A DNA stretch of 64,000 nt from Podarcis cretensis (taxonomy: Eukaryota), in contig OX638156.1 of NCBI GenBank assembly GCA_951804945.1, positions 40,238,001 to 40,302,000 of the forward strand, in the 5' to 3' direction. Positions 22,678-64,000 of this stretch are shown here, in pieces (position 1 is the stretch's first letter; each line of letters begins with the position of its first letter). The position numbers and the translations under genes are program-made. A model generated the notes under the pieces. It had not been told where the DNA came from. It searched no databases and saw only the letters and a program-made list of their open reading frames with translations.

Positions 22678-24885
22678 TTATTATTTGTACTCCGCCCATC
22701 TGGCTGGGTCTCCCCAGCCACTCTGGGCGGCTTCCATAAAAACCAAAAATACACTAAAATATCACAGATTAAAAACTTCCCTGAACAGGGCTGCCTTAAG
22801 ATGTCTTCTGAATGTCAGGTAGTTATTTATTGCTTTGACATCTGCTGGAAGGGCGTTCCACAGGGCAGGCGCCACTACCGAGAAGGCCCTCTGCCTGGTT
22901 CCCTGTAGCTTTGCTTCTCGCAATGAAGGAACCGCCAGAAGGCCCTCGGCGCTGGACCTCAGCGTCCGGGCAGAATGATGGGGGTGGAGACGCTCCTTCA
23001 AGTATACTGGGCTTTAAAGGTCAACACCAGCACTTTGAATTGTGCTCGGAAACATACTGGGAGCCAATGTAGGTCTTTCAAGACCGGTGTTATGTGGTCT
23101 CGGCGGCCGCCCCCAGGCACCAGTCTAGCTGCCGCATTCTGGATTAGTTGTAGTTTCCGAGTCACCTTCAAAGGTAGCCCCACATAGAGCGCATTGCAGT
23201 AGTCCAAGCGGGAGATAACTAGAGCATGCACCACTCTGGCGAGACAGTCCGCAGGCAGGTAGGGTCTCAGCCTGCGTACCAGGTGGAGTTGGTAGACAGC
23301 TGCCCTGGATACAGAATTGAACTGCGCCTCCATGGACAGCTGTGAGTCCAAAATGACTCCCAGGCTGCGCACCTGGTCCTTCAGGGGCACAGTTACCCTA
23401 TTCAGGACCAGGGAGTCCTCCACACCTGCCCGCCCCCTGTCCCCCAAAAACAGTACTTCTGTCTTGTCAGGATTCAACCTCAATCCATTAGCCGCCATCC
23501 ATCCTCCAACCACCTCCAGGCACTCACACAGGACCTTCACCGCCTTCACTGGTTCTGATTTGAAAGAGAGGTAGAGCTGGGTATCATCTGCATATTGATG
23601 GACACCCAGTCCAAACCCCCTGATGATCTCTCCCAGCGGCTTCATATAGATGTTAAAAAGCATGGGGGAGAGGACGGAACCCTGAGGCACCCCACAAGCG
23701 AGGGCCCAGGGGTCTGAACACTCATCCCCCACCACCACTTTCTGAACACGTCCCAGGAGGAAGGAGCGAAACCACTGTATAACAGTGCCCCCAGCTCCCA
23801 GCCCCTCTAGACGGTCCAGAAGGATGTTATGGTCGATTGTCTCAAAGGCCGCTGAGAGATCCAGCAGAACTAGGAAACAACTCTCACCTTTGTCCCTAGC
23901 TCGCCGGAGATCATCAACCAGCGCGACCAAGGCAGTTTCAGTCCCATGATGAGGCCTGAATCCCGATTGGAAGGGATCCAAATGGTCCGCATCCTCCAGG
24001 CGTGCCTGGAGTTGTTCAGCAACCACGCGCTCAATCACCTTGCCCGAGAAAGGAAGATTTGAGACTGGGCGATAGTTGGCCATACTGGCCGGGTCTAAAG
24101 ATGGTTTTTTAAGAAGCGGTTTAATGACCGCCTCTTTCAGCGGATCTGGGAATGTTCCCTCACAGAGGGAAGCATTCACCACCCCACAGAGCCCATCGCC
24201 CAGCCCTTCCCGGCTTGCTTTTATTAGCCAGGATGGGCAAGGATCCAGGAGACAGGTGGTTGGTTTCACGCGTCCAAGCAGCCTGTCCACATCCTCGGGG
24301 GTAACGGATTGAAATTGATTCCATGCAACTTGACCAGACAGAGCTCTAGCACTCTCCCGCCCCGGCACTGCTCCCACAGTGGTGTCTAGCTCCTTCCGAA
24401 TATGAGTGATTTTATCTGCAAAAAACTTTGCAAAATCGTTGCAGGAGATCTTGGGGTCTTTACAAGACCCCGGTGGTAAAGGTGGTTCCGTTAAATTACG
24501 AACCACCTGAAAGAGTCTCCTGCTACTATTTTCTGCAGATGCAATAGAGGCGGTGAAGAAAGTCTTCTTCGCCGTCGCTATCGCCACTTGGTAGGCTCGA
24601 CGTTGAGCTCTAACCTGTGTCCGGTCAGATTCGGAGTGAGTTTTTTGCCACCGACGCTCTAGCCGCCTCAGCGATTGTTTCATCGCCCTCAGCTCCGAAG
24701 AAAACCACGGAGCTGTCCGGGCTCCATGCAATCGGAGAGGGCGCTTCGGAGCCAGACAGTCGATAGCCCTGGTTAACTCCGCATTCCAGCGGGCCACCAG
24801 GGAATCAGCTGAAAGGCCATCAACATGGGATAAAGCATCCCCTACCACTCTCTGGAAACCATTTGGATCCATTAAGTGGCGGGGG
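22629..24885 (-). mobile_element. 5'-truncated young L2-clade LINE: RT part of ORF2, 3' UTR and (ATT)n tail
   Basis: 624-aa ORF 22998-24872 with NYRPVSNLPF, QSGFR, LDLSAAF, GVPQGSVLSP, YADD and QNAAARL motifs; C-terminus continues in another frame (22762-23001); microsatellite tail 22629-22677. Confidence 0.93.
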
Positions 24886-25493
24886 AACTAAAACACTGCT
24901 AAATACTTGCTAAGGATTTGTCACCAGTAAAGAACAAATAAAGGTGTGCTTTAATGATACCATATCTCTAATCAGCACCACCTGCAAAGTCCTGATCAAA
25001 GTAGAATAAATCTTACATCATTTGCAATGTAAGCATGGAGCCAAACAAAGCTGTTCAGAATACACATGCTATGTCATCCTCAGTTGACCTTTGAGAAAAT
25101 AGTGACTTGCCAGTTCATCAGGGACCTAGTTACAGTGATGACAATCTAGTACCAAATGAACCTCTCTCCGGTTATAATCATCTCTAGTGAAAATCATGTT
25201 TGCTGATTATCCAATAGCCACACATACAGTATACAGAGCTTGCCTGTTAATACTGTTGATCAGTTTTTCTAAGTTTAACCTACATGTTTTACAACCAAAT
25301 GCAGCAGAACCCACCACTTAGCATTTCCAGCTATACACACATGGCAAAATATACACATGCTCAAATATAACCAAACATATGCAGTTTCTTTCACAGAAGT
25401 GACATCCGTACAGGAAATCTATCATACATGAAACAGCCCTTAAGTTTCTGGCATTCAGTTTTTCCTCAAAAGGTCAGATTGTGATCAACATAC

Positions 25494-37769: not shown

Positions 37770-37973
37770 NNNNNNNNNNNNNNNNNNNNNNNNNNNNNNN
37801 NNNNNNNNNNNNNNNNNNNNNNNNNNNNNNNNNNNNNNNNNNNNNNNNNNNNNNNNNNNNNNNNNNNNNNNNNNNNNNNNNNNNNNNNNNNNNNNNNNNN
37901 NNNNNNNNNNNNNNNNNNNNNNNNNNNNNNNNNNNNNNNNNNNNNNNNNNNNNNNNNNNNNNNNNNNNNNNNN
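37770..37973. other. Assembly gap (204 N)
   Basis: Run of N. Confidence 1.
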
Positions 37974-42949: not shown

Positions 42950-44420
42950 AGCTCTTTCTCCGCCTGTATTGTAGCAGCCTCTGACCGGTATCCTACAAGA
43001 CGATTCGGGAGCGGCTGAGGAAGCCCAAGGGCGGCGCACACCTGGGGCTGGCGGGCGCCTCGACGTGGATTAACTAAAGCCTCTGAACAAGCAACAACGC
43101 TTCGCGACCCGCCTCGTTCGCTTCCACAAGAAGTAGCCCAAGTCACTTCCGGCTTCGGAGGGCGGGCAGGACAGGCCAACGGAGCGGACGGGGCCCCTCA
43201 CCCTTTCTCGGCGGCCCAATTGGGACAGCCTCCTGGGGGCAGGCAGGAGCCCGCCGTTGCCGCGAGCGACCCTCGGCTTTTATTTATTCCGCGGCCGGAC
43301 TCGCCTTCGGGGCGCAAGAGGGGAAGGAGGGAGAGAGGGGCAGGGGGTCTCCGGGAGGCCTCCTCGCCCCACCACAGGGAACAACACGTGCAGGGACAGG
43401 CGAGCTACGGGCAGGCCCAGCTCACCACTCCTTTGCTTAGCGCTTCAGCGCCGGCTACGCCGGGAGAGACGCGGGACGCAGGCCGCCCACCGCTACCGCC
43501 ACTACCGCTCGGCCTCCCGGTGACTTCCGCCAGCGCCGGCCTTGCCGCCTGGAGCGAACGGCGCGGTTCTCACCTGGGGCGGGCCGGGGGCGAGGGTCTC
43601 GGGGCCGGGGCGGGCGCCTGGCTGAGCCGCTCGCGCTTCTCTAGCTACCTCCTCCGCTGGTTCCCAAACAAAATGGCGCCGGGAGTCGCGCGCTCACGTC
43701 GCGGCCCTTCTCTTCCCGTCTTCCCCTGCGACGGACGTAAGGCCAGGGGGCGGGGGCTCCTCGATCTCGCTTAGCTCGCCCGCGCGAGGAAGCCCTGGCC
43801 CAATCGCAGGCTGTGTCCAGCTCCGCGCTCGAGCCCGCCTCCCTGCTTTCGTCCAATCCCCACCTCGAGGAGCAGCGCGATATTATTTTTCCCCCTTTGC
43901 GTCTGCGTAGGGACGAAGGCCAGGTTACCCAATCCGTGTTTGGAAGTGGTTGCTGGAAGGCGGCGCAAAGCGGAGGAGATGGCTAGGGGGCGCTGCAGAA
44001 CTATCGGCCGACAAGGATTGGTTAAAGGCAATATTGAGCTCAGCTCGGCCAATCATAACGTGGCGCCGCGAAGGGAGCGTGTCAGCTACGACCAATAACA
44101 GTCGGGCGCGGTTGCTGTGGCCGAGGAGCCAGGCGTGAGGCGCGATTCCTTGGGAAGTGTAACGGGGCAGCTAGGAGGTCGACGAGCACTCCACCCTGGA
44201 AGGAAGCGCATGCGCACGGGCTTCCCGGAGAGCGGGGGTGCGCCTGAGGCAGTTGTGCAGCTGCTAAGCGGGTCTTCGCAGCCTCCCTTCGGAGCCGCTC
44301 CGGCGCCTGGCTTGTGTGTGTGTGTGGGGGGGGTCCTCTCGGAAGGCCGCTTCCCTGGGGCTTCTCCGCGGGGCCGGAGTAGACGGGGCTCTGAGGTGGA
44401 CCTAAGTGTTGGAGAAGCAG
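42950..44420. promoter_or_regulatory. CpG island promoter of CNOT1
   Basis: Dense CpG; YY1 motif aaaatggcg at 43670; CCAAT/ATTGG at 43800, 43853, 43929, 44017, 44049, 44092; NRF1 GCGCATGCGC at 44206; GC boxes. Confidence 0.9.
43574..43680 (-). other. CNOT1: CNOT1 non-coding exon 1 (TSS approximate)
   Basis: GGCGCCATTTTGTTTGGGAACCAGCGGAGGAGGTAG resembles the human CNOT1 5' end as recalled; donor CCAG|gtgaga. Confidence 0.75.
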
Positions 44421-46867: not shown

Positions 46868-46954
46868 TCAGATGTAGCTGGCTTTGGAGAGGAAGCATTC
46901 AAACATCTTCTGAGCTTGTCCAGGCTTATACTGTGGAACCATGTGACCAGCACC
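46868..46954 (-). CDS. Cathepsin A-like serine carboxypeptidase, coding exon 11 (catalytic His, stop)
   Basis: GAGHMVPQYKPGQAQKMFECFLSKASYI*. Confidence 0.92.
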   Translation of the reverse strand, partial: GAGHMVPQYKPGQAQKMFECFLSKASYI

Positions 46955-47220
46955 CTATATATGAGAGGGAAGATGCTTTAGAAAAGAGCTGAGAAAGCAC
47001 ATCTGAAATAATTTCCCCCTGCCTAAAACATTGTGAAGGATACTGGAAGCTTATATTGAGCAGAGCAAGAAGAGGCAACATCTGTGTAAAGGAGAGAATG
47101 CAACTTTTCGCCAGTGCTGTCTTGATAATGTGTGTGCAATTAATCACATATTGGCTGTGTTTTCACATAAACTGGGGTTAATGTTATTTAACAAACAAGC
47201 CATGTATTGCTTATTTAGAG

Positions 47221-47350
47221 CAGGTGTGGGAAACCGTGGCCCTCCAGCTGTTGCTGAACTACAACTCCCATCATCATTAGCCATGCTTGCTGGGACTGAT
47301 GGGAGTGGTGGTTCAGCAACAGCTGGCAAACCAAAGGTTCCCCACACCTG
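47221..47350. mobile_element. Palindromic hAT-type MITE
   Basis: TIR caggtgtggg / cccacacctg with internal inverted repeat. Confidence 0.85.
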
Positions 47351-47701
47351 CTTAGATCTTATTTTGTTTTCTAGCTACTCTTGCGTCATGCCTTCCCAGC
47401 TTGAGGAGCATCTGGGGTAACAGGTAGGGAAAACAACCATAGTTAAGCAGGGTTGTTAGGTTCATAAGTAATGTTAAACCATAGTTAGAATAAGCCATGA
47501 TTTTTAAGCCAATACCGAGCCATGGCTTCACATTGTCATTTGCTGATAGAAAATAAACAGGCTAGTTTGCTGATATGTTTTCACATGTTCAGGCAAACCA
47601 CAGTTACGGTAAACAAACCATAGTTTAATGTTACATGAGAACCAGGCCTTTGTTACAGGGCCCAGGATTACACCTAAGCCCTTTTAATAATGGGTCTCTC
47701 C

Positions 47702-47754
47702 AGCTTGAGAAGCCATTGCCTCCAACGTGTTAGCTTGAGAAGCCATTGCCTCCA
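47702..47754. repeat. Direct repeat of 23 bp (period 30)
   Basis: agcttgagaagccattgcctcca occurs twice, followed by degenerate tcttgaaaacc units. Confidence 0.85.
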
Positions 47755-48074
47755 TCTTGAAAACCATCTTGAAAACCTCTATCTTGAGAGCCATGTCATG
47801 CTTAAAAAATAACTGAGCCCATATAATGTGTTTTCTAAACAAGCTTTTGGCTCTGCTCCTGCTTTAAAGTATTGGCCGTTAGTGTTGCTCTTCCTGTTTT
47901 TGTGTTATCCTGCTGTTTATAAACTTGTCATTTTGTCTTTTAATTATTAGCTTGTTGCTGATTTTTACTTAAAATCTGCTTTTGAGTAACACTGTTGTAC
48001 AGGGGAGAAGCAGGGCATAAATCTTTTAAATAATGAAAAGTATAATGCCCACTGGCTCCAATTAAATCACTGAC

Positions 48075-48164
48075 CTTTACGGTGAGAAATGTGATCTTCT
48101 CATACTCCTTGAAAAATCCTGCAATCTGATCATTGAAATACCAGGGCTGGTAATCATTTAGCAC
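48075..48164 (-). CDS. Cathepsin A-like coding exon 10
   Basis: VLNDYQPWYFNDQIAGFFKEYEKITFLTVK. Confidence 0.92.
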
Positions 48165-48504
48165 CTGTGGAATTAATGAAAAAGAAGGTCACAAACTGGA
48201 AACAGACAAGAGACCCAATATTAGTGTACATACTAGTCTATCGCAGATGCTCCAAAACTGGCTCTTAGTAGACTTATTACTCCAGATCATGTTTTGCTAA
48301 CTTTCTCTTCATCTCTGCCCATCCATTCTAACTTCTTTTCTAAATGACAGCTTGGTTATGTCTTTAACAACAACTGCACATCTGTCGGTATTGGAAAGCT
48401 GGGTCCTAAAAGGCAGGATCAGCTGTGTCTTCCCACATAAATTAAGGAGCAATAGGTTTTCAATACAGCACTTAAGATATCCATAGTTCAAAGGAGTTAC
48501 TTAC

Positions 48505-48667
48505 AGTCTGATTTAAAGACTCAACAAACTTTTCAGCCCCCAAGAAGTTGCAGGCCATGTCCACGTCTCCATTATAAACCAATGCTCGTAGGTCCTGAGC
48601 CAGCAGATACTTGTAGAAGGGAGTCATGTCTCTGTACACCCTTTGGTAATGAGAGCTAACCTGTGTA
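48505..48667 (-). CDS. Cathepsin A-like coding exon 9 (catalytic Asp)
   Basis: TQVSSHYQRVYRDMTPFYKYLLAQDLRALVYNGDVDMACNFLGAEKFVESLNQT. Confidence 0.93.
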
Positions 48668-50100
48668 CTGCATGGAGAAGAGAAACGCATGGGGGGTGGG
48701 GTTCAAGGAGCTTGGGCCCCTCATCCCTTCTCCCCTTTGTTTCACCGGTAAGATCAACCAAGGGTGCCCTTTTGATGCAAAATCCAAGCTGCCAAGAACA
48801 TGCAAGTTGGGGTTCTCATTGACTGCCAACAGCCACAGAATTCCTTTCCTGCCCCTGCAGGCCTATCAGAATATGAGCATGAGCCAAGGCCATCCACCAC
48901 CAAGTGGTTTCAAGAGGAAATGATGCTGAATATACAAACCCATGTACTCTATACCTTGCCCCAGAGGAAGAATAATAAATAAGCTGGGGAGAAATAAATG
49001 TTCCCAACCTTAGCGGTCCACAGCTGAGACAAATATCCTCTATAATTTAATCCAGTGATGTCTGGAAGGTAGTTTGTTTTACAACTGTTTTCAGAATTCT
49101 CATACAATTGAGATCCAACTTATTAGTTCCAGCCAAAACCTCTTAATGCCCAGTAGTAGCAGTTAGTTGTTGTATTCATTGTCTCTTTTAAGGAAAACCA
49201 TCTAAGCCACAATAAGACATTTTAATGGGAAATGGTGGTAAGCATCAGTACTATGCTAGGTGTGAACAAGCGTGAGGATTAGCCATGTGGAAAACCTTAC
49301 CTATGGAGAAGTTATTTTTTCAAACAAATTTCCTGAACATGTAATATCACTTCTCAGTGAGACTGAAATACCCAAATAAATAATGATAAGGTTTTGCACA
49401 CCCCTCCAAATGCCCAACAAAAATACCACAGAAGACTATTGATGACTGCATGTCAGTAAGATGAACAAGGAGAAGAAAGGTCCATTTGTCACCTGAAAAA
49501 GTTCTATCGGATGACTCACTATGCATGCAACCCCAACAGAGAAGCAGGGGAAAGATTTATTCAATATCATAAAGGACTTATGCCACATCTTACAAGATGA
49601 CTGTAACATGATTGTTGTTCTCCCAGGACTATCGGTATTGGAGATCTGTCAGCTCACCCGAGGGGTCTTGAAGAAGCAAGGTAGTCAGTACATCAATAAA
49701 ATCTTCAGTTCCCTTCACTTGATTTCATATTGTACATCCATGCAAAAATTATCTGGGAAAGGAGACTACCCTTGCAGATAATTCTGACATCACTTCCCCA
49801 GCTTCCAGGCTTAGGGCAAGAAAGTATGGGCAGAGTGAAACAGGTGCTTCACGTTAGAGGGTTGTCAAAACAAAGATGGGGAAGCTGTTTTTGTTGCAGT
49901 CTGCATTTTCATTTGATCTCAGTCCTAGTACATACCCATATGTTATCAAGCTCTGGCAACCTGCAGTGCATCAGTACTGTACCAGCGGAGAAACACCACT
50001 TTTCCACAAAGCCTTGCCAGGCCACTGCCCTTCATTACCATTCCATTACCAAACAACTTTTTCATGCTTCTGAAGAGCAGAAACATTTGATGGGAGTCAC

Positions 50101-50228
50101 CTGCAGAGCTCCCAGTCTGGGAGAGTGCTGGGGATGTGGAGAGCCTGCCGGACTTCATCCTGGTTCAGCCACACATACATAGCAGTGGCATTTATACAAT
50201 GTGGCACTCCTGGGATGGAGCCAATTTT
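50101..50228 (-). CDS. Cathepsin A-like coding exon 8
   Basis: KIGSIPGVPHCINATAMYVWLNQDEVRQALHIPSTLPDWELC. Confidence 0.9.
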
Positions 50229-50531
50229 CTGAAAGTGAAAGCAAAGAGAAGGCAAGATGAGGTTGAATTCTTCTGGGAAAAGCTGGTGCAAGATACCAGC
50301 ACCTTGCTTTGCCAGACCTAAGCCTGATTCAGCAAGTGGCCCATAGTTCATTTATAAATGGATGAATCATGCCTTCCCAGCATAAACTTTTGGGAATAAA
50401 TTTCCATACTGAATATTAATGCTTAAGAAAATTGGTTTTTTTTTTGGGGGGGGGTTAAGTTTGCCAAATTCACAGAATCACTAGAGCCACCTGAGTGATG
50501 TAAATGTGATGAAGATAGCCTATCAACTCAC

Positions 50532-50681
50532 TCGCACTGGAACATCAAACTGGTAGTGGTGGAAGAGGCTCGACAGATCGGCTTCATAACGCTCCTGGTA
50601 GTGTGCTCCTCCCCAGCAAGATGCGTAGAGGTTGTACACATTAAGGCCAATTCCATAAAGAATTCCATAGGCTTGTGATAT
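50532..50681 (-). CDS. Cathepsin A-like coding exon 7
   Basis: ISQAYGILYGIGLNVYNLYASCWGGAHYQERYEADLSSLFHHYQFDVPVR (GLNxYNLY motif). Confidence 0.88.
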
Positions 50682-51490
50682 CTTGAGGATGGGAACAGGG
50701 AAGAAGAGGATAGAAGAGTTAGCTACGCTCTGAGTTTATGTGCAGAAAGAGGAGAAAGGAAACAGATGTGTGGAATTCAGTAATATTTATAGCTTTTGAG
50801 GGTCATCAGTTTATTTTTATGGGTTTATTATCAAATTTATATCTTGCCCTTCTGCCCAAAGGAGCCCAGGGCAGCTAACAACAAAGCAATAAAACATATT
50901 CCAAAATCTTAAAAACAATTCCAGTACAGATGCAGACTGGGATAAAGATAACCAGTGAAAAGACAAGAGATTGCACCTGTGTAATATTCAAGGGGAGGGG
51001 ATTCCAAAGGGTAGGTGCCCCAACACTAAGGACCAGATTACTACATTGTGCAAAATAGACCTCATTATAAGACGGTATCTGCAGGCAGCCTTCACCTACA
51101 GAGCACTGTGATCAACTGAATATATAAGGGGTGGGATTATCAGGAATCCTAGTTCCAAAGTGTATAGGGATTTATGCACCAAAACCAGCACATTGAACTT
51201 AGCCTAGTAACTACGTAATTAGCACCCATTGCAATTATTTCAATGGTGTGGTAACACGTTGGCAACATCCTAATGCTGTTCAGAGAATTTGGTGTAGTAG
51301 GTGCTATGGGCACAAAATAGGGCAGAGACATTTCCAGAAGACTTTACTAAACCCATAATCTACCAGTTCAGGCCAAAACACATTATTGCATAACAATTAG
51401 AACATTCTAGTTTGTGGCCAGGTGCAAATGGAGTTTGCAAAGTCCACACTACATGAGTTAGTATCAAGGATTTTCAGTCCAGGCACTCAC

Positions 51491-51575
51491 TGCTGTGATA
51501 CAATCACTGTTCATGTTGCTGGAGAAGTTGCAAGTTCCTTCATCACAGCAGTTTTCGTTCAAGGAGGCCCACAAG
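51491..51575 (-). CDS. Cathepsin A-like coding exon 6
   Basis: 85 nt, LWASLNENCCDEGTCNFSSNMNSDCITA. Confidence 0.92.
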
Positions 51576-52204
51576 CTATAAGGCAGGAAAGAAGGCGGTA
51601 AAGTGTCAGGTAGAGGGAAGCTTATTCATTTTTATTCAATCATTACATTTGTATACCACCCTTCACTCAAAATCACAGGGTGGTTCACAACTTAGAAGCA
51701 CAAAGTGTGTGTGAGCACACACACACACAGGCTCCCCTGCCCAACAAAGGAGAACAGATAGTTCAAACAACATTGACAGATATCTGTCCTGTGTTCCCTG
51801 GAGATGTCAACAACCTCCCTAACTATTCTGCCTACAGTTTGTGCAAGTTAAGCTTTTCTTTCTGTCCTCTCTTCAGTGGAGATAATTGCTAATTTTATTC
51901 ACTGACAGGAAACAACGGCTTCCCCTTATTTAGCACACCTTTGACTCACTTGCCATCCAACCACCTTGCTTGCCAGTTTCTTGTTTCTGATGTACTCAGT
52001 GATGCATGATAAGGGCAAGACCCTTTACTACAGTCTCCACTCTCCTTTTTTGCTTCTCATTTGATCTGGCAAATGGAGAAGGCGGGGACAATTCTTTTAG
52101 AGGCCAGGTGTGAACTTGGAGCTACCAGTTGTTGACTTGTATGGTGGGAGATTTACCTGTGGCCACTTGCTGACCCAACTCCCCTTGTCCTCTTCTGTAC
52201 TCAC

Positions 52205-52296
52205 TCATCTCCAAACACTCCATGGTAGTAGGCAAATTCCATCAGTGTCTCGTCATTGAGGAAATAGCTCAGCATGCCATTGCCAACCCCAAATCC
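52205..52296 (-). CDS. Cathepsin A-like coding exon 5
   Basis: 92 nt, GFGVGNGMLSYFLNDETLMEFAYYHGVFGD. Confidence 0.93.
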
Positions 52297-52756
52297 CTGA
52301 GGAATCAGATAACAAAAGATCATGCCAAGAAAGGAGTTGTATGAAATTGGATGATGGGATAGTTAGTTGAAAGGCTATAATTAGAACAAGGCCTGATGCC
52401 AGGTTTGAAGATAGCAGGCAGAGGAACTGTAGTGTCTAGTGCCTCTTGAGATACAGCACAACTGGATGTGGGGCAATGGCACCGGACATTCAGAGGCAGC
52501 TACCAAGCAAGGCCTTCAAAGTGAATCCACCTCCCCAATTCCAGGCATGTCCTTTCCATGTGGCCTGCTTTGGATGTGAGAGGAGTGAGGCCTTCAGGGC
52601 TTGTTGTCATCAGGGCAAAATCTGCATTAGTGGCTGCTGCTTGTGGGTTGGCAGTGCTCACTCATTGCCCCTAAATGTGCCATTTGGCCTACATGGAAGA
52701 TCTTAGCTCTCCTGGTTTCCCAGTGACTCTGCTTCCTGTACCGCGATTGTGTTTAC

Positions 52757-52915
52757 CTTCAGGTTAATGCCTGCTGATCCTTCCGCAATCTTGGCAGTGA
52801 GAGTGGGGACATAGATTCCACCATAACTTTCCCCAAAAACATAAAATTCGTTGTTTGCAAAGTCTGGGAATTTAGCAAAGAAACTCTGGAGAGCCTGGTA
52901 GTTGTCCTCAGCTAC
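52757..52915 (-). CDS. Cathepsin A-like coding exon 4 (catalytic Ser, GESYGG)
   Basis: VAEDNYQALQSFFAKFPDFANNEFYVFGESYGGIYVPTLTAKIAEGSAGINLK. Confidence 0.94.
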
Positions 52916-53420
52916 CTAAAGTAGGGAGAAATTTTGACCCACCTCTTAGCTTTGGTGCAAATCATAGGACAGAGTTTGATGTGCATATCATGTGCGGCTG
53001 CATTAAGAAACACACTCCTGGCATTATCTTCCCCCACCCCACCCCTCTGCTCCTCATCCGTCAGGAGTATATGACAGAAATCTTGATTTGTCTCAATGAA
53101 CATCCAAATAAAGACTTCTCCTACCTGTAAGGCAAATGGAATCTGTCCCAACAATACTTACAAACTTTGTGAGCTGATCCCTCACAGCCCAGACAGCTGT
53201 GTAGGAAGTCTATATTGCCTCTGGATAGAACCATGCCATACATTTAAGGCACAGCCAATGCACATTTACAACACATGGCTCCCCCAAAGAATGCTGATAA
53301 TTGTAGTTTCTTCCTCAAAGAGCTGCAGTTCCCAGTGCCCTTAGCAATCTATGATTCCCAGGATTCTTTAGGGGAAGTCGTATGATTTAAATGTGCACTG
53401 GCTGTGTTTTAAAACCGTAA

Positions 53421-53717
53421 CTGAGGTCCAGCTCAGAGGGCCTTCTGGCAGCTCCCTCATTTTGAAAAAGTGAAGTTACAGGGAAATAGGCAGAGGGCCT
53501 TTTTGGTAGTGGCGCCCACCCAGTGGAACACTCTCCCATCCGATGTCAAAGATATAAACAATTATATGACTTTCTGTAGACATCTGAAGGCAGCCCTGTA
53601 TTGGGAAGCTTTTAATGTCTGATGTATCATGTGTTCTTTTATACTCTGTTGGAAGCTGCCCAGAGTGACTGGGGCAACCCAGTCAGTTGGGTGGAGTACA
53701 AATTAATTATGATGATG
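53421..53717 (+). mobile_element. L2 3' fragment
   Basis: Diverged reverse-complement match to 22680-22960. Confidence 0.8.
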
Positions 53718-53892
53718 TATGGTGTGGTTCTGCCCTATATTACTGCCACAGGACTAACAACCTTCCCCCATCAGCTGCTACCATCACCATTCCATCTATT
53801 GCCCCACCCACCACTGGCATGTATGAATCACCCCCATTTTGTTTACTAGAGAATGCGGTCCGTAGGCCAGGAACAAACAGCAAATTACCTAC

Positions 53893-54024
53893 CTGGCTGT
53901 CATTGATAGGGCTGTCCTCTGTGGCATAGGAATAGCCAACTCCAGCCGGAGATTCCATGTAAAGCACGTTGGCTACCTTGTTCCAGCTGTTGGGGTTCAG
54001 GTAGAGTGTTGCATCGTCATTCAG
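53893..54024 (-). CDS. Cathepsin A-like coding exon 3
   Basis: [44 protein letters not shown]. Confidence 0.93.
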
Positions 54025-54558
54025 CTACACAAAACCACAAGGCAGGCAAAGCGGGTTACTTTGGGGATGTGAGGTATTTGCAGCATGCTGTTCACTAAAT
54101 CTTCCATATCAATTGCCTCCAAGCACAGTCTCAGATTCCCAGTCCTTGAGAAATCAGGCATCTGTGAGTTGGTCTGGGCATTATTGCAGGATTGTCATAC
54201 ATCCAAGATTCTCCCGGACACATACAGAATACTGCAGTTGGCAGCAGTGTCCAGGTGGAAATCAGGAAAATGTCCAAGAAAATCCCCAAAAGCTCAACAA
54301 CTTTGGGCAAAATTAAAACAACATAGAGCCTCTTTGCACCTGGCTCTGATGATCTCATAGTAAGTAAATAATGTTGCCTCTGCACCTGTATATAGCACCT
54401 TTCCCTCCTGACAGAATGATCCCAGGCAGCCTCCACAACTTTGAGATGAGATCAAGAGCTTCAGGCCCAGTTGAATCCCAACTACCTGATCCACAACCCC
54501 TTTCTTGTCCCATGTTTCTCTTCTTTCCCATCAGCATACAGAGCGGCCACAGACTCAC

Positions 54559-54670
54559 ATGGAAAGGTCCATTCTCAGCCAGGAGGCCTTCCATGGAACT
54601 ACAGCCTGGTCCCCCATTTAGCCAGAGCACCACGGGGTCAGTTGCTGGGTTGCCCTGAGACTCCACAAAC
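54559..54670 (-). CDS. Cathepsin A-like coding exon 2
   Basis: 112 nt, [37 protein letters not shown] (S10 [10 protein letters not shown] motif). Confidence 0.95.
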
Positions 54671-55265
54671 CTGTCAGGATAGAAAGGGAGAGAGCAAACA
54701 CCCTGATGGATATGTTTAGAGGAGGCCCAAAGAATGGAGACCCGAGGAAGATACCTGATGCAGTAGCAGACTTTGGGCTCTCAAATTTCAGCGGCGCCCT
54801 GTGTGACGCTAATATTTGGTGCAACCTCGCCTCTTATGCTTTGTTCTACAGCATTGTTTTGGTGAACCCTGCAGTGTGGCACCCAGTGTGACTGCTCTGG
54901 TTGTGCCACCCTAAAACTGCCTTTGCCTGATGTTGCAGCAGTCCTATAGCTAAGCATGCCTGTGCTGAGTGAGGGGCTGCATTGGGAACATGGAAGGAAG
55001 AACAGGGGCATCATCATTGAGGGTGTAAATAAATGTGGTGTTAGCTGGTGGGACTAGTGGGGCAGAAGGGAGAGAGACTAATAGTAGGCAGAGAGAGGTG
55101 GAACCACAGCCAGCAACAGGGAGAGCCAGAAAATTTTGTCCCAAGTGAGTTCTACAAGATCAACCCTGAGACTGAGGAAGAGGAAGGTGGCAAGCAGGGC
55201 TACTCCCTGGGCCCGTTGTAAATCATAAGGCAGGCAGTTGTGACATAGCTAAGGTTGGTGGGGCT

Positions 55266-55267
<2 letters not shown>

Positions 55268-55309
<42 letters not shown>

Positions 55310-55425
55310 TTATTATTTATACCCCGCCCATCTGGCTGGGCCTCCCCAGCCACTCTGGGCGGCTTCCATAGAAAGCAAAAATACGGTAAAATATCACACG
55401 TTAAAAACTTCCCTGAACAGGGCTG
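55268..55425 (-). mobile_element. Young L2 3' tail with (AAT)n
   Basis: Close match to 22630-22793; gggctgt at both junctions. Confidence 0.85.
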
Positions 55426-55730
55426 TGCCGCATTTACGCTAGTGAACCAGCCCCCACTGAATCAACCTTTTCCTCCATGCAGCTACCTTATGGGCAGGAA
55501 TCCAGGAGAGAGGCAGGCAAGGAACTACAACATCCAACATGGCAGCCTGCTCCTACTGGACCTGCCTCCCTCCTGCCCCCACCCCCGCCCCTCTGCAGGG
55601 CCATGGATCACCACCAGAAATGAAACAGCTTCTGTTTTCATAATGGTCTTATTGTTATTGCACTTTGACTTTATTTGTAAGCTGCCTTGGGGGGAATTTG
55701 TGCCTGTAAAGGGAAGACACAAATTATTAT

Positions 55731-55772
<42 letters not shown>
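55731..55772. repeat. (AATC)n tetranucleotide microsatellite
   Basis: About 10 units seen directly. Confidence 0.95.
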
Positions 55773-55916
55773 GCTAATGTTACAAGCAACCAACTTATTC
55801 TTAGGCTGCCCCACACAGCTAGTTCCAGGGCAGTAGAGAAGCATAAACGTTTCTGTAAGCTGCAGCTCATCCAGAACATCTTGGCAAAGGCAATTGCAAC
55901 AAACGATTAGCAAGAG

Positions 55917-56100
55917 CATAAGGACATCAGAAGAGCCTGCTGGATCACACCCAAGGGGGCCCATCTAGTCCAGCACCCTGCTCTCATAGGGGCCAACCCA
56001 AGGGAAACCTGCAGGCAAGACCCAAACACAAGAGTGCTCTGCCATCCTGCAATTTCCACCAACTGACATTCAGAAGTGTTGCTGCTGCTGCCAATGGTGG
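55917..56100 (-). mobile_element. CR1-type LINE 3' end fragment
   Basis: agaagagcctgctggatca...gcccatctagtccagca motif, similar to 8995-9230. Confidence 0.6.
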
Positions 56101-56291
56101 AAGTCCATGAAGCAGCTGTTGTCTGGATGTCAGCAATGTGTCTAGCCAGGATTAGCTTTTTAGCTCTTAATTCATGAGCAATTGGAAGCATGCATAGGTC
56201 AGCCAGCACATACCCAAAAGCAACAAACAGTTCAAATGAAGAGGAGACATGAATATTAACTCAATCTCTGGCTCTCTGGCTCTCTGCTTAC

Positions 56292-56464
56292 CAGTAATGG
56301 AAGTATTGGCCAGATCCTGCCTGGAGATAGCCGGACCATTGCTGGAAGGTTGGCATCTCAGACAGTCCTGGCAGGGAAGTGATGAGATCCGGAGAAGCAT
56401 CTGTCCCTGAGCAGAGGCCAAAGGAGACACTGAAGACGGCGCACAACCTGAACAAGAAGTGCAT
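56292..56464 (-). CDS. Cathepsin A-like coding exon 1 (signal peptide)
   Basis: accATG Kozak; MHFLFRLCAVFSVSFGLCSG then DLITSLPGL...WSGYL...HYW; donor TG|gtaag. Confidence 0.88.
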
Positions 56465-57299
56465 GGTGCTGTTTTGGGACAGGCTGCCATAGAGTGGTGG
56501 TGTTGCAGGGCACCTTATATCATGCTCGGCCTGTGTACTCTGATAACAAGCCAACAGCATAATCTTGTTTCTTGATTACTAGAGATAATGGGAAGGCGGG
56601 CAGCGTGGCTCAATGTACCAGCAAAACACAAGCCAGGCTTCTATGGAAGGAAATGTCACTTTGAAATGTCACCTTCACCTTATTTAGCCTAACAAGACTT
56701 CAGATTAGATTGACCAATTTGGCTAAGTCTCTGGCTTCAAGGTAAATTATGATCAATCTTTTCCAAGAATTGGTACTGATACGGTTAAGTGACACTTCCT
56801 TAATGGAATCTCTCAAAATCTAAGAAGCAGAAATATCTAGGCATAGGCCCGGACTTAGGTTTGATGAGGCCCTAAGCTACTGAAGATAATGGGGCCCTTT
56901 ATATGTGATATTTTAGGGAGCAGGCTAGCAGGCGGGGCCTATTACTTACATCATAGGAGCCTACACAACACAAAACACTCTTGCTGTATGTAGATTTTAT
57001 TTTTTTAATCCTTGGATTAGCTCTTTTTGAAACCTAGGTCTCCCAGACATTTGGAAAAAAATGGATAACCAACTAAGGATAACAAACTATTTCATTTGGA
57101 CAGGTAAGAAAAGCTTAGATGTAGAAATAATACAGTACTGTAAGCTGTTGCTCAGTGACAAAAAAACAGCACAGTGATGTATGAGTCCCCCAATCTGAAA
57201 CTTTTCTTTGATGAAGTGTATCAACGACGACTGCTGATTCACTTACAGAAAGACTTGAATCTTTACTGGATCAATAGAGATGGACTGAATTATAGAATA

Positions 57300-61458: not shown

Positions 61459-61561
61459 TCACTTCTTGAGATCCATAAAGATAGCGTTGGTAGTTGTCTG
61501 TCCAAAGATAAATGCTCCAAGGATAACCATGAAGACGCCGTAGCTCACCATCGCCCACCAG
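61459..61561 (-). CDS. SLC38A7: SLC38A7 (SNAT7) last coding exon
   Basis: 103 nt, [33 protein letters not shown]. Confidence 0.92.
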
Positions 61562-61673
61562 CTATGGATAAAAGAGGGGAGACTGGCATGAAGCACACAT
61601 GATTCCATAACCACTGACCCCACATGGATGAACTGGGCAAGAGGAGGCAGCAAAGAAGAAGCACAGCTCTTAC

Positions 61674-61728
61674 CCGGCTGGTCTGGCCTCTTGTATTTCG
61701 GAGAGCTTGGTGTGGATGAGGCAGAGTC
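61674..61728 (-). CDS. SLC38A7: SLC38A7 coding exon
   Basis: 55 nt, [17 protein letters not shown]. Confidence 0.9.
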
Positions 61729-62477
61729 CTGGCAAGGAAGGAGCGGAGGAAAACGGTGAAGGAAAAAAGCAGCAGAAGGAACCACCAAGGCATTTTTTTT
61801 GCAGCCATCTAGATCTCAGAACAATGAACAGTTCTAACAAAGCCAGTGTTACGTTCAACAGTTTTGAGCAATATCAGGTTCTTGTTGGTGTGCAAAGGAA
61901 GTATGTCTTGAACATTTTAGTGAAAGAAGATCCACCACTGAGGTGGCTGCAGAAAAGTCACTGTGCAGAAGAAAGTTGGTTGTGTGGGCTAACAATCAAT
62001 TGCTAATTTATCCAAAGGAAGTGGGTGTGGGAAGGGTGGCAACTCAGGCTGAACTTATAGAGAAAGAGAATTCTGGCTAGGGGAATATTCTGGCCTATCC
62101 AGAGCAGGTACCTGCGAGGCGAGGTGAGCCAGGCTGGTAGTAAAGACCACCAAATAAAGTTCCAAAGGAGCCATCTGCTCTGCTAAAAGCAGAAGTGAAC
62201 TGAGGTCTTCTGAGTCCCTCTGTCCTGATTTCCCCTCCTAAGCGAGACTCCCCAGCCTGAGGGCAAGTGCTTCTCTGCCTCTCTGTATCCTTCTGCCTGA
62301 AAAACTCCCCCTGCCATTGGGCAGGGACCCTGGAGTGGGAGCACCTTGACTCATCAGGGAAATCAAGCTGGGAGAGGCACCTCCATGGGTCCCTGCTCAC
62401 AGCCTCAGCTTCAGATCGCCCCACCAAAAGCAGAATAAGAGCCCCCCTGTTACACACAGTCAGCCAGGGAAAACTAC

Positions 62478-62677
62478 CTGGGAAAACAAAGATGAAGCAG
62501 GCAGCCAGGCCCCCAATGAGAGAGATGACTTTGCCAATGTCAGGAATGAACAAGGCCAGGAGGAGGGTGAGGAGGAACCAGCTGACCGTCTGCAAGAGGC
62601 GCCGCCTCCTCTCCCGCACGACGTCTTCTTCAACCGCCTCCCCCTTGTAGCGCAGCCAGAGGCCTTCCAGCACAGCC
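62478..62677 (-). CDS. SLC38A7: SLC38A7 coding exon
   Basis: 200 nt, [66 protein letters not shown]. Confidence 0.95.
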
Positions 62678-62812
62678 CTGGGCAGGAAGCCAAGACAAAA
62701 GGAGGAGTTAGGGGTTGCCCTCTGCCACTGCAACACCCCAAGCAAGGACTGCACAGCAGCAGGAGAGGCTCACGCCAGCCAGCCCCACCAACCCCTCCCG
62801 CTCCACGCTCAC

Positions 62813-62960
62813 CGGCCACAGAAATGCAGGATCGGGTAGGAAGTGAGAACGCAGACGATGATGGAAACCCGGGCAATGGCGACTGGGATGTCGTTGGAGG
62901 GGTAGGACATGAGCACATCCTGTTCCACACTGGACCCAAACGTCAAGTATCCACAGACTC
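62813..62960 (-). CDS. SLC38A7: SLC38A7 coding exon
   Basis: 148 nt, [49 protein letters not shown]. Confidence 0.95.
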
Positions 62961-63086
62961 CTGGCAGGAAACAGGAGGAGGAGGAAGAGGAAGAGAAGAA
63001 GATGAAGAAGAAAGAAGGGAGATCAGTCTCCCTTTTGTGGCTCAGAAGAGGCGATTGAACGCTTCCTCTTTTTTCATCCCGCCTAC

Positions 63087-63201
63087 CTGTGCCCGTGTAG
63101 ACAAAAAGAGCGATGACCATGGCTGCTGTCACAACGGCCCCCCATGGCTTCACCTCTGGTTGCTTCATGCTGTGGAAGACGGGCACGCTACTGACGTGGC
63201 A
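63087..63201 (-). CDS. SLC38A7: SLC38A7 coding exon (upstream exons lie beyond the window end)
   Basis: 115 nt, [38 protein letters not shown]. Confidence 0.95.
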
Positions 63202-64000
63202 CTGCCAGGGAGAAGAGGAATAGGAAAGGGTTGTTAGGTGTGGAAGAGGAGGATGCAAGTTTTCTGATCAGCCTTTGTGATTACTTGCACAGGAGATCCT
63301 TCTCCCAGACTTGTTCTTTGGGCTAGTGCAGTTTTTCCACACATATGTTTTCACAGCTGGAGACCAAACAGCCAGTCAACAAATTCAGCAAAAAGTAGCC
63401 TTGACCAGCCTGGTGCCATGAACATCTGGAGGGAGGATGCAATAACAGGGCCTTTGATTTTCCCTTAAGACGGTTGAAGGATAAGAACCACCTCTGCCTC
63501 ATTCCAGGACCCACGTAACTCACATTATCCCTTTTTAAATGCTTTCTGAACCAAATTCCATCTTAACTTTTCCTAGGACAGCTGTATTTGTATTCTACAG
63601 TAATCCATTTCCCCTTATCCCTCATCTGGAGAAGGGCGCGCAGGCTCCATATGAGCACCTCAAAAGCTTTTGTCTGTCTGTTCACACCTTATTCAACCTT
63701 TCTTGCAAGAGGTTGAAGCTAGTGTACTTAGGATATCACATCCTACTTATAAAAAACGGACAGAAAAACACAAGGCTACATACCATAAACACCATAGAAA
63801 AGAAAACACTACAGTTTCATCCAAGATAAAAATGAATTAAACTTGAAACAAAGGTCAGGGTTTAGATTGATTGTTCTGTCTCTCTCCCCATCCCATTGCA
63901 CCCCCCGTGTCTCCAAATAGAGCTGAGAAAGACCCCTGAATGAAACCCCAGAGAGACCCTGCCAGTCTGGAGGGCATCAAGCTAGCATAGAAAATATTGA

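Follow-up and report, generated by a model that had tools for sequence, protein, structure and literature searches.

What is a second cathepsin A-type carboxypeptidase gene, found between CNOT1 and SLC38A7 in the genome of the lizard Podarcis cretensis, and which of the roles of cathepsin A (CTSA) could it share? We address this question for a window of 64,000 nucleotides (contig OX638156.1, here C8, positions 40238001-40302000), in which the gene, hereafter the CTSA-like gene, lies on the minus strand at 46868..56464. The evidence is best explained by an S10 serine carboxypeptidase that is a sister of CTSA and is predicted to act as a tissue-restricted acidic exopeptidase without GLB1 protection or NEU1 activation, a reading that we consider fairly probable.

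A GT-AG splice search over candidate exons joins 11 exons into a frame of 1371 nucleotides that encodes 456 amino acids and ends in a single terminal stop, with GT..AG boundaries at all 10 introns. Alternative in-frame splice choices are present in this search, and the model given here was chosen because the RNA joints and the 456-amino acid database orthologues match it; the exon count and lengths of the original prediction are confirmed. The catalytic motifs GESYGG (Ser169), NGDVDMAC (Asp378) and GAGHMVP (His432) and the sequons NDS136, NFS239, NAT314 and NQT396 were likewise located, all intact, where that prediction had placed them, and the motif [10 protein letters not shown] lies at residue 74. 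Hydrophobic residues 3-18 and small residues before position 21, as judged by eye, make up a predicted signal peptide. The coding exons are as follows:

56292..56464, minus strand: exon 1, with the ATG, the stretch coding for the predicted signal peptide, and the counterpart of the loop by which CTSA binds GLB1, where Leu27, Glu36 and Gln41 replace human Glu34, Lys43 and Arg48; junction seen in spliced contigs
54559..54670, minus strand: exon 2, with the [10 protein letters not shown] motif, the oxyanion and carboxylate-binding region
53893..54024, minus strand: exon 3, covering two CTSA exons; sequon NDS136 aligns with a human CTSA sequon
52757..52915, minus strand: exon 4, with GESYGG; catalytic Ser169 at 52828-52826
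52205..52296, minus strand: exon 5, with Tyr216, the equivalent of the CTSA dimer-core Tyr224
51491..51575, minus strand: exon 6, a cysteine-rich cap segment with sequon NFS239
50532..50681, minus strand: exon 7, corresponding to two CTSA exons and holding the first half of the activation linker, which is shortened
50101..50228, minus strand: exon 8, with the proline-rich linker end; sequon NAT314 aligns with the second human CTSA sequon
48505..48667, minus strand: exon 9, with Arg353, sequon NQT396 and the catalytic Asp378 (48567-48565); it corresponds to two CTSA exons
48075..48164, minus strand: exon 10, lacking a 4-5-residue loop of CTSA (human residues ~427-431)
46868..46954, minus strand: coding part of exon 11, with catalytic His432 at 46945-46943 and the TGA stop

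The C-terminal end encoded by exon 11 shows neither a membrane anchor nor a tail for retention in the endoplasmic reticulum (ER). Two observations concern the model itself. The last codon of exon 7 (50532-50534) reads Arg in the assembly and Pro in the contigs of three sequencing runs and in other Podarcis; the Arg, an allele or an assembly error, creates a dibasic pair in the linker. Furthermore, an in-frame upstream ATG (56288-56575, minus strand) gives rise to the 488-amino acid RefSeq models of Podarcis muralis and Zootoca; this start lies upstream of the putative TATA-like box described below and most orthologues have 454-458 amino acids, such that it may be over-extended, assembled contigs being of a kind that cannot show translation starts. 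A stretch of N at 37770-37973 falls outside the gene.

The encoded protein belongs to family S10. The Pfam profile Peptidase_S10 (PF00450) matches the 99% identical P. muralis orthologue with an E-value of 3.6e-134 and 448.7 bits against a cut-off of 21.9, and the window exons themselves exceed this cut-off. The hallmarks of the family, namely the Ser-Asp-His triad, Glu before the Ser and the WLNGGPG motif, are all present, and throughout the alignment of the CTSA-like clade the Ser and Asp are retained in 36 of 36 rows, the His in 35 (with one gap), and Glu168, Asn76 and Arg353 in 36 of 36. The nearest database proteins are Podarcis entries labelled 'lysosomal protective protein-like' at ~99% identity (99.3% for Podarcis lilfordi CAI5781991), and identity is 78% to Anolis and alligator and 67% to tree shrew. 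The best match among solved structures, by sequence, is CTSA (E-value 7.8e-137), and the model of the Anolis orthologue (predicted local distance difference test score 81.7) comprises an alpha/beta-hydrolase core with a cap and reaches a template modelling score of 0.84 to human CTSA (1IVY). In common with CTSA (PDB 1IVY, 7KDV) are the triad, eight aligned cysteines, two glycan sites, the dimer-core tyrosine and nine intron positions; in contrast, the CTSA-like gene has three fewer introns, falls in a separate clade, has a CpG-poor promoter and encodes a more acidic protein (isoelectric point 4.46 vs. 6.23 for lizard CTSA). Carboxypeptidase activity at acidic pH would be expected from the conserved active site. 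Two further S10 loci of the genome, presumably CPVL and SCPEP1, are much weaker matches.

Could this gene simply be the only CTSA of the lizard, relocated, or else a dying pseudogene? Nothing beyond homology to CTSA speaks for either proposal, and we regard their probability as practically nil. The S10 family search of the genome returned four loci, on contigs C8, C6, C12 and C2, of which the last two are presumably CPVL and SCPEP1. Canonical CTSA was located on C6, with 14 exons, 486 amino acids and its own spliced junctions in the same runs that contain those of the CTSA-like gene. Pfam domains of the Neuralized, LBP/BPI/CETP and ZSWIM1/3 types are encoded on either side of it, which is the NEURL2-CTSA-PLTP neighborhood known from human; this synteny (NEURL2, PLTP, ZSWIM1/3) belongs to the C6 gene and is not found at the CTSA-like gene. 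Because canonical CTSA sits elsewhere in the genome, the CTSA-like gene is a paralogue rather than a translocated copy, and the complete C6 gene with its spliced contigs rules out a sole, translocated CTSA. The two lizard proteins are 46% identical, and nine of the 10 introns of the CTSA-like gene coincide with CTSA introns in both position and phase, the tenth falling in the poorly aligned linker. These nine common introns rule out a retrocopy, whereas a dying pseudogene is ruled out by the open frame and by 65-99% identity across amniotes. Neither a shark query of the genome nor inspection of the 154 kb around the CTSA-like gene detected a second local copy or a gene of the sister clade described below.

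The spliced contigs also settle the concern, raised along with the original prediction, that the gene might not be expressed. A query with exons 4-8 listed 23 runs, none recorded as RNA, and contigs were read from four of these, from four studies (X1, X2, X3 and X9); the best of the runs guessed to be RNA contain about one-fifth of the query words, which is the exon share. Spliced contigs join the exons at the predicted sites at nine of 10 junctions in X1 and X9 and at seven of 10 in X2 and X3, with the exon 4-5 junction represented only in X1, by an unjoined contig end that matches the last part of exon 4. Contig depth of the CTSA-like gene is ~3300 in X1 and 3-11 in the three other runs, compared with 54, 53, ~620-1500 and 68 for CTSA in the same four runs. 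These depths are only a hint at tissue-restricted expression, with which a CpG-poor promoter carrying a TATA-like box agrees; it counts against the hint that contig depth cannot rank genes and that X1 was retrieved by a query with the CTSA-like gene itself.

Whether the protein could perform the protective functions of CTSA is a question on which the surfaces of the two proteins are informative. According to PMC8115914, the core salt bridges of the GLB1-CTSA structure use Glu34, Lys43 and Arg48, and substitutions of Lys43 block the complex. At these positions the CTSA-like protein has Leu, Glu and Gln, as opposed to Glu, Lys and Lys in lizard CTSA. Lys43 is present in 23 of 23 CTSA rows, in none of the 34 rows of the CTSA-like clade with a residue at this position and in none of 26 rows of the sister clade; Glu34 is found in 17 of 22 CTSA rows and, again, in 0 of 34 rows of the CTSA-like clade with a residue. 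For NEU1, PMC10198634 reports that activation fails with a CTSA mutant that carries extra glycans at 427-429 and 477-479, and the loop at human ~427-431 spans 10-11 residues in 22 CTSA rows compared with 6 in all 34 rows of the CTSA-like clade with data. Alternatively, the CTSA-like protein might duplicate the protective role of CTSA, binding both GLB1 and NEU1, and have been lost as redundant wherever CTSA sufficed. The same fold, the dimer-core tyrosine (present in 33 of 36 clade rows) and the retention of both human glycan sites are compatible with such a role, repeated loss fits redundancy, and the database name implies protection. However, the charge reversal at Lys43, the loss of Glu34 in 34 of 34 rows with a residue, the missing loop at the NEU1-linked surface and the non-housekeeping promoter all speak against this alternative, which we deem highly unlikely. 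Our own reading, that of a peptidase relieved of the protective functions, has to contend with several points as well: Glu34 is also missing in five of 22 CTSA rows, such that only Lys43 cleanly separates the groups; position 48, at which half of the CTSA-like clade (18 of 36 rows) has Arg or Lys, provides no separation; the lizard GLB1 interface could differ from the human one; and a single combined glycan mutant (PMC10198634) is all that maps the NEU1 surface. Two CTSA proteins from snakes, one from a monitor and two from geckos (P0199, P0202, P0152, P0185 and P0188) lack Glu34 of this interface and keep Lys43.

With respect to activation, CTSA requires removal of an excision peptide (PMC8115914). 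The Cys-to-Cys segment of the linker has a median length of 41 in the CTSA-like clade vs. 54 in CTSA (~14 residues shorter), its end is proline-rich, and its last part holds 0-3 basic residues, compared with 1-7 (mostly 3-6) in CTSA; model confidence is low across the linker of the Anolis orthologue. Judging by these features, the chances are about even that the CTSA-like enzyme would be active uncut or opened by another protease. We therefore envisage, in outline, a protein that would be brought into the ER by its signal peptide, could travel to lysosomes by means of mannose-6-phosphate carried on the two glycans common to CTSA or else be secreted into an acidic lumen, probably dimerizes, and would clip C-terminal residues at acidic pH with Ser169-Asp378-His432, as CTSA does; given the shortened, proline-rich and base-poor linker, it might have no classical zymogen or be opened by a different protease. 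It weighs against this scheme that activity, localization and binding are predicted from sequence and a structural model.

The alternative destination merits separate consideration, namely that the enzyme is secreted into an exocrine or digestive lumen, such as gut, gland or skin secretion, instead of being lysosomal. The predicted signal peptide, the lack of an anchor, the isoelectric point of 4.46 vs. 6.23 and the CpG-poor promoter with its TATA-like box are all compatible with secretion, and the contrast in depth between X1 (~3300) and the remaining runs (3-11) is a weak hint in the same direction; the runs, however, are of unrecorded tissue. The zebrafish gene si:ch211-122f10.4 is a putative member of the sister clade. 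Its product was probe-labelled as an active serine hydrolase (PMC9786740), and it is enriched in lysosome-rich enterocytes (PMC11906160), which favors lysosomal protein digestion over secretion. We thus judge a purely secreted enzyme to be rather unlikely, and treat the zebrafish data as a lead toward gut protein digestion, by analogy, and not as a test of the lizard gene.

How old, then, is the split between the CTSA-like gene and CTSA? In the trees, the CTSA-like clade has a support of 100 and a clade of shark and ray-finned fish 'cathepsin A-like' proteins is its sister with a support of 95-99. The CTSA-like gene does not group with vertebrate CTSA, which instead joins mollusc and sea-cucumber proteins (Shimodaira-Hasegawa-like approximate likelihood ratio test, 97), the invertebrate rows having come from a profile search. 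A single vertebrate clade is rejected by the approximately unbiased test with p-values of 0.0034 (43 rows) and 0.00008 (25 rows, after 18 long-branched or redundant rows were dropped). Moreover, the 4-5-residue loop is present in all 22 rows of CTSA with data and in proteins of the molluscs Patella and Littorina, the sea cucumber Apostichopus and the tunicate Clavelina, and is absent from all 60 rows of the two sister clades as well as from Glandiceps, Amphiura and Lytechinus; echinoderms contain both loop-bearing and loop-less types. On these comparisons, the split from CTSA quite probably predates vertebrates.

This dating faces objections. The trees come from quick searches, contain long branches, are not rooted by CPVL or SCPEP1 and were built without amphioxus or lamprey; several unnamed invertebrate rows were picked after an initial FastTree look; and C6 and C8 both carry paralogues of NDRG and of matrix metalloproteinases (MMP), as whole-genome-duplication pairs would. 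The last point leads to the proposal that the CTSA-like gene is a whole-genome-duplication ohnologue of CTSA, with trees misled by rate differences and the enzyme function as envisaged above; one copy each would have been kept on the 16q-like and 20q-like chromosomes. Nine introns are common to both genes, and the four NDRG loci of the genome, on C6, C7, C8 and C13, all lie on contigs with M10 metalloproteinase genes; the distance between the window and one NDRG is ~50 kb, and that between CTSA and one MMP is ~140 kb. Nevertheless, vertebrate monophyly is rejected in both taxon sets, and the distribution of the loop, which four of the invertebrates have in common with CTSA and which three others lack, as do all 60 rows with data of the CTSA-like lineage, runs counter to an origin within vertebrates. 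Reciprocal loss from an older linked pair would produce the same map and would reconcile the trees with the paralogous chromosomes. An ohnologue is accordingly, in our estimation, distinctly unlikely.

The sister clade, which includes shark 'lysosomal protective protein-like' entries and probably fish CTSAb, likewise lacks Lys43 and the loop. It is a distinct paralogue, given that bichir, gar, bowfin and a mormyrid have both genes; in bowfin and alligator gar, the records of both paralogues are on a longest contig of equal size, which suggests local duplication. Rockfish CTSAb, ascribed to whole-genome duplication in PMC9409823, probably belongs to the sister clade, a link made through genus and length (459 amino acids), and the present trees place its split much earlier than that duplication. 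In the fish set of PMC13664112, ctsa is reported as single-copy. Among the remaining rows, the CTSA clade contains a pair of Hemicordylus genes (P0157 and P0163), and the frog Hyperolius has a long-branched protein on the CTSA side (P0341).

The distribution of the CTSA-like gene, with orthology called by tree or by cluster membership, is patchy. Among reptiles, orthologues were found in lacertids, skinks, an anguid, a cordylid, iguanians, many snakes and four crocodilians; among mammals, in platypus, echidna, eight marsupial genera, ten afrotherian genera, armadillo and Tupaia chinensis (458 amino acids, full length); and among fish, in coelacanth, bichir, gars, bowfin, osteoglossomorphs, clupeiforms and characiforms. 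In the coelacanth (Latimeria; P0334 and P0475), Cys replaces the Tyr after the catalytic Ser, and the models look incomplete or mis-spliced. Contamination of the tree-shrew record from a listed afrotherian is unsupported, as it is at most 88% identical to any compared row and has its own branch among placentals. Thus, the original prediction of an ancient CTSA paralogue stands insofar as the gene is intact, transcribed and ancient, but its assertion of retention in non-mammals was wrong, since monotremes, marsupials, Afrotheria, armadillo and tree shrew carry orthologues.

In birds, turtles, amphibians, geckos, laurasiatherians, rodents and primates, no orthologue was found among the best 120 of 5226 hits or in the ten clusters read fully; CTSA of birds, a turtle and geckos did turn up, and it tells against these absences that the word-indexed search missed the coelacanth orthologue. 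The known human S10 genes are CTSA, CPVL and SCPEP1, and for human and mouse the absence of the CTSA-like gene follows from established knowledge. The patchy distribution suggests repeated losses, and we infer that the gene was lost several times, including in the lines leading to human and mouse. If laurasiatherians are truly without it, at least two losses occurred within boreoeutherians, because the tree shrew retains the gene. A bolder and more tentative proposal is that of a fourth, overlooked vertebrate S10 lineage that would predate the split of protostomes and deuterostomes, a 'cathepsin A without chaperone job', possibly a self-active, tissue-specific digestive or secretory enzyme, kept in reptiles, marsupials, elephants and tree shrews and independently lost in birds, most teleosts, laurasiatherians, rodents and primates; a human remnant would then be expected between CNOT1 and SLC38A7.

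The gene has been annotated automatically in dozens of genomes, and its fish sister is already listed as CTSAb. The RefSeq and UniRef entries named 'lysosomal protective protein-like' (e.g., XP_028595262.2 and XP_006148543.2) are orthologues of the CTSA-like gene under a name borrowed from CTSA, a name that probably misleads. Six 'protective protein-like' accessions go unmentioned in the open-access literature searched, which took in a minority of supplements, and no study there deals with the clade, where it occurs or what it does. The CTSA-like gene extends a known family by one member, and its predicted differences are simple to test. Its likely loss in humans would be invisible to human-mouse-dog comparisons if all three lack the gene. 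The natural pair in one genome would separate the peptide cutting of CTSA from the protection of GLB1 and NEU1 and point to surfaces for the protective role that is lost in galactosialidosis. Furthermore, tree shrews, marsupials, reptiles and some fish are predicted to have an extra cathepsin A-type activity, which is relevant to work on peptide hormones and prodrugs in these animals.

The proposed position between CNOT1 and SLC38A7 holds, CNOT1 being identified by the Pfam domain DUF3819 and SLC38A7 by tblastn with the Hemicordylus protein, and all three genes are on the minus strand. The features around the gene are:

61459..63207, minus strand: 3' coding exons of SLC38A7, the upstream neighbor
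56515..56520, minus strand: putative TATA-like box read from the sequence, ~50 bases upstream of the ATG
43200..44200, minus strand: CpG island (observed/expected ratio 0.95), taken as the promoter of CNOT1, the downstream neighbor

The CpG observed/expected ratio of the promoter is 0.22-0.25 for the CTSA-like gene vs. 1.15 for CTSA and 0.95 for CNOT1. Nothing was found that links the function of the CTSA-like gene to the adjoining transporter SLC38A7. The order around the window is NDRG, CNOT1, CTSA-like gene, SLC38A7 and a putative GOT2-like gene, the exons of which, beyond SLC38A7, are named from their motifs; apart from the CTSA-like gene, this order agrees with human 16q21. Two 854-amino acid RefSeq models of Hemicordylus capensis (P0272 and P0275) fuse SLC38A7 to exon 2 of the CTSA-like gene and may reflect read-through splicing or an annotation artefact; because they fuse both genes, they point to the same adjacency in another lizard family. 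A single short GATA-type motif lies at 56540-56546, just upstream of the TATA-like box, and a 629-amino acid open frame at 22998-24887 on the minus strand, similar to the reverse transcriptase of long interspersed nuclear elements, lies inside an intron of CNOT1.

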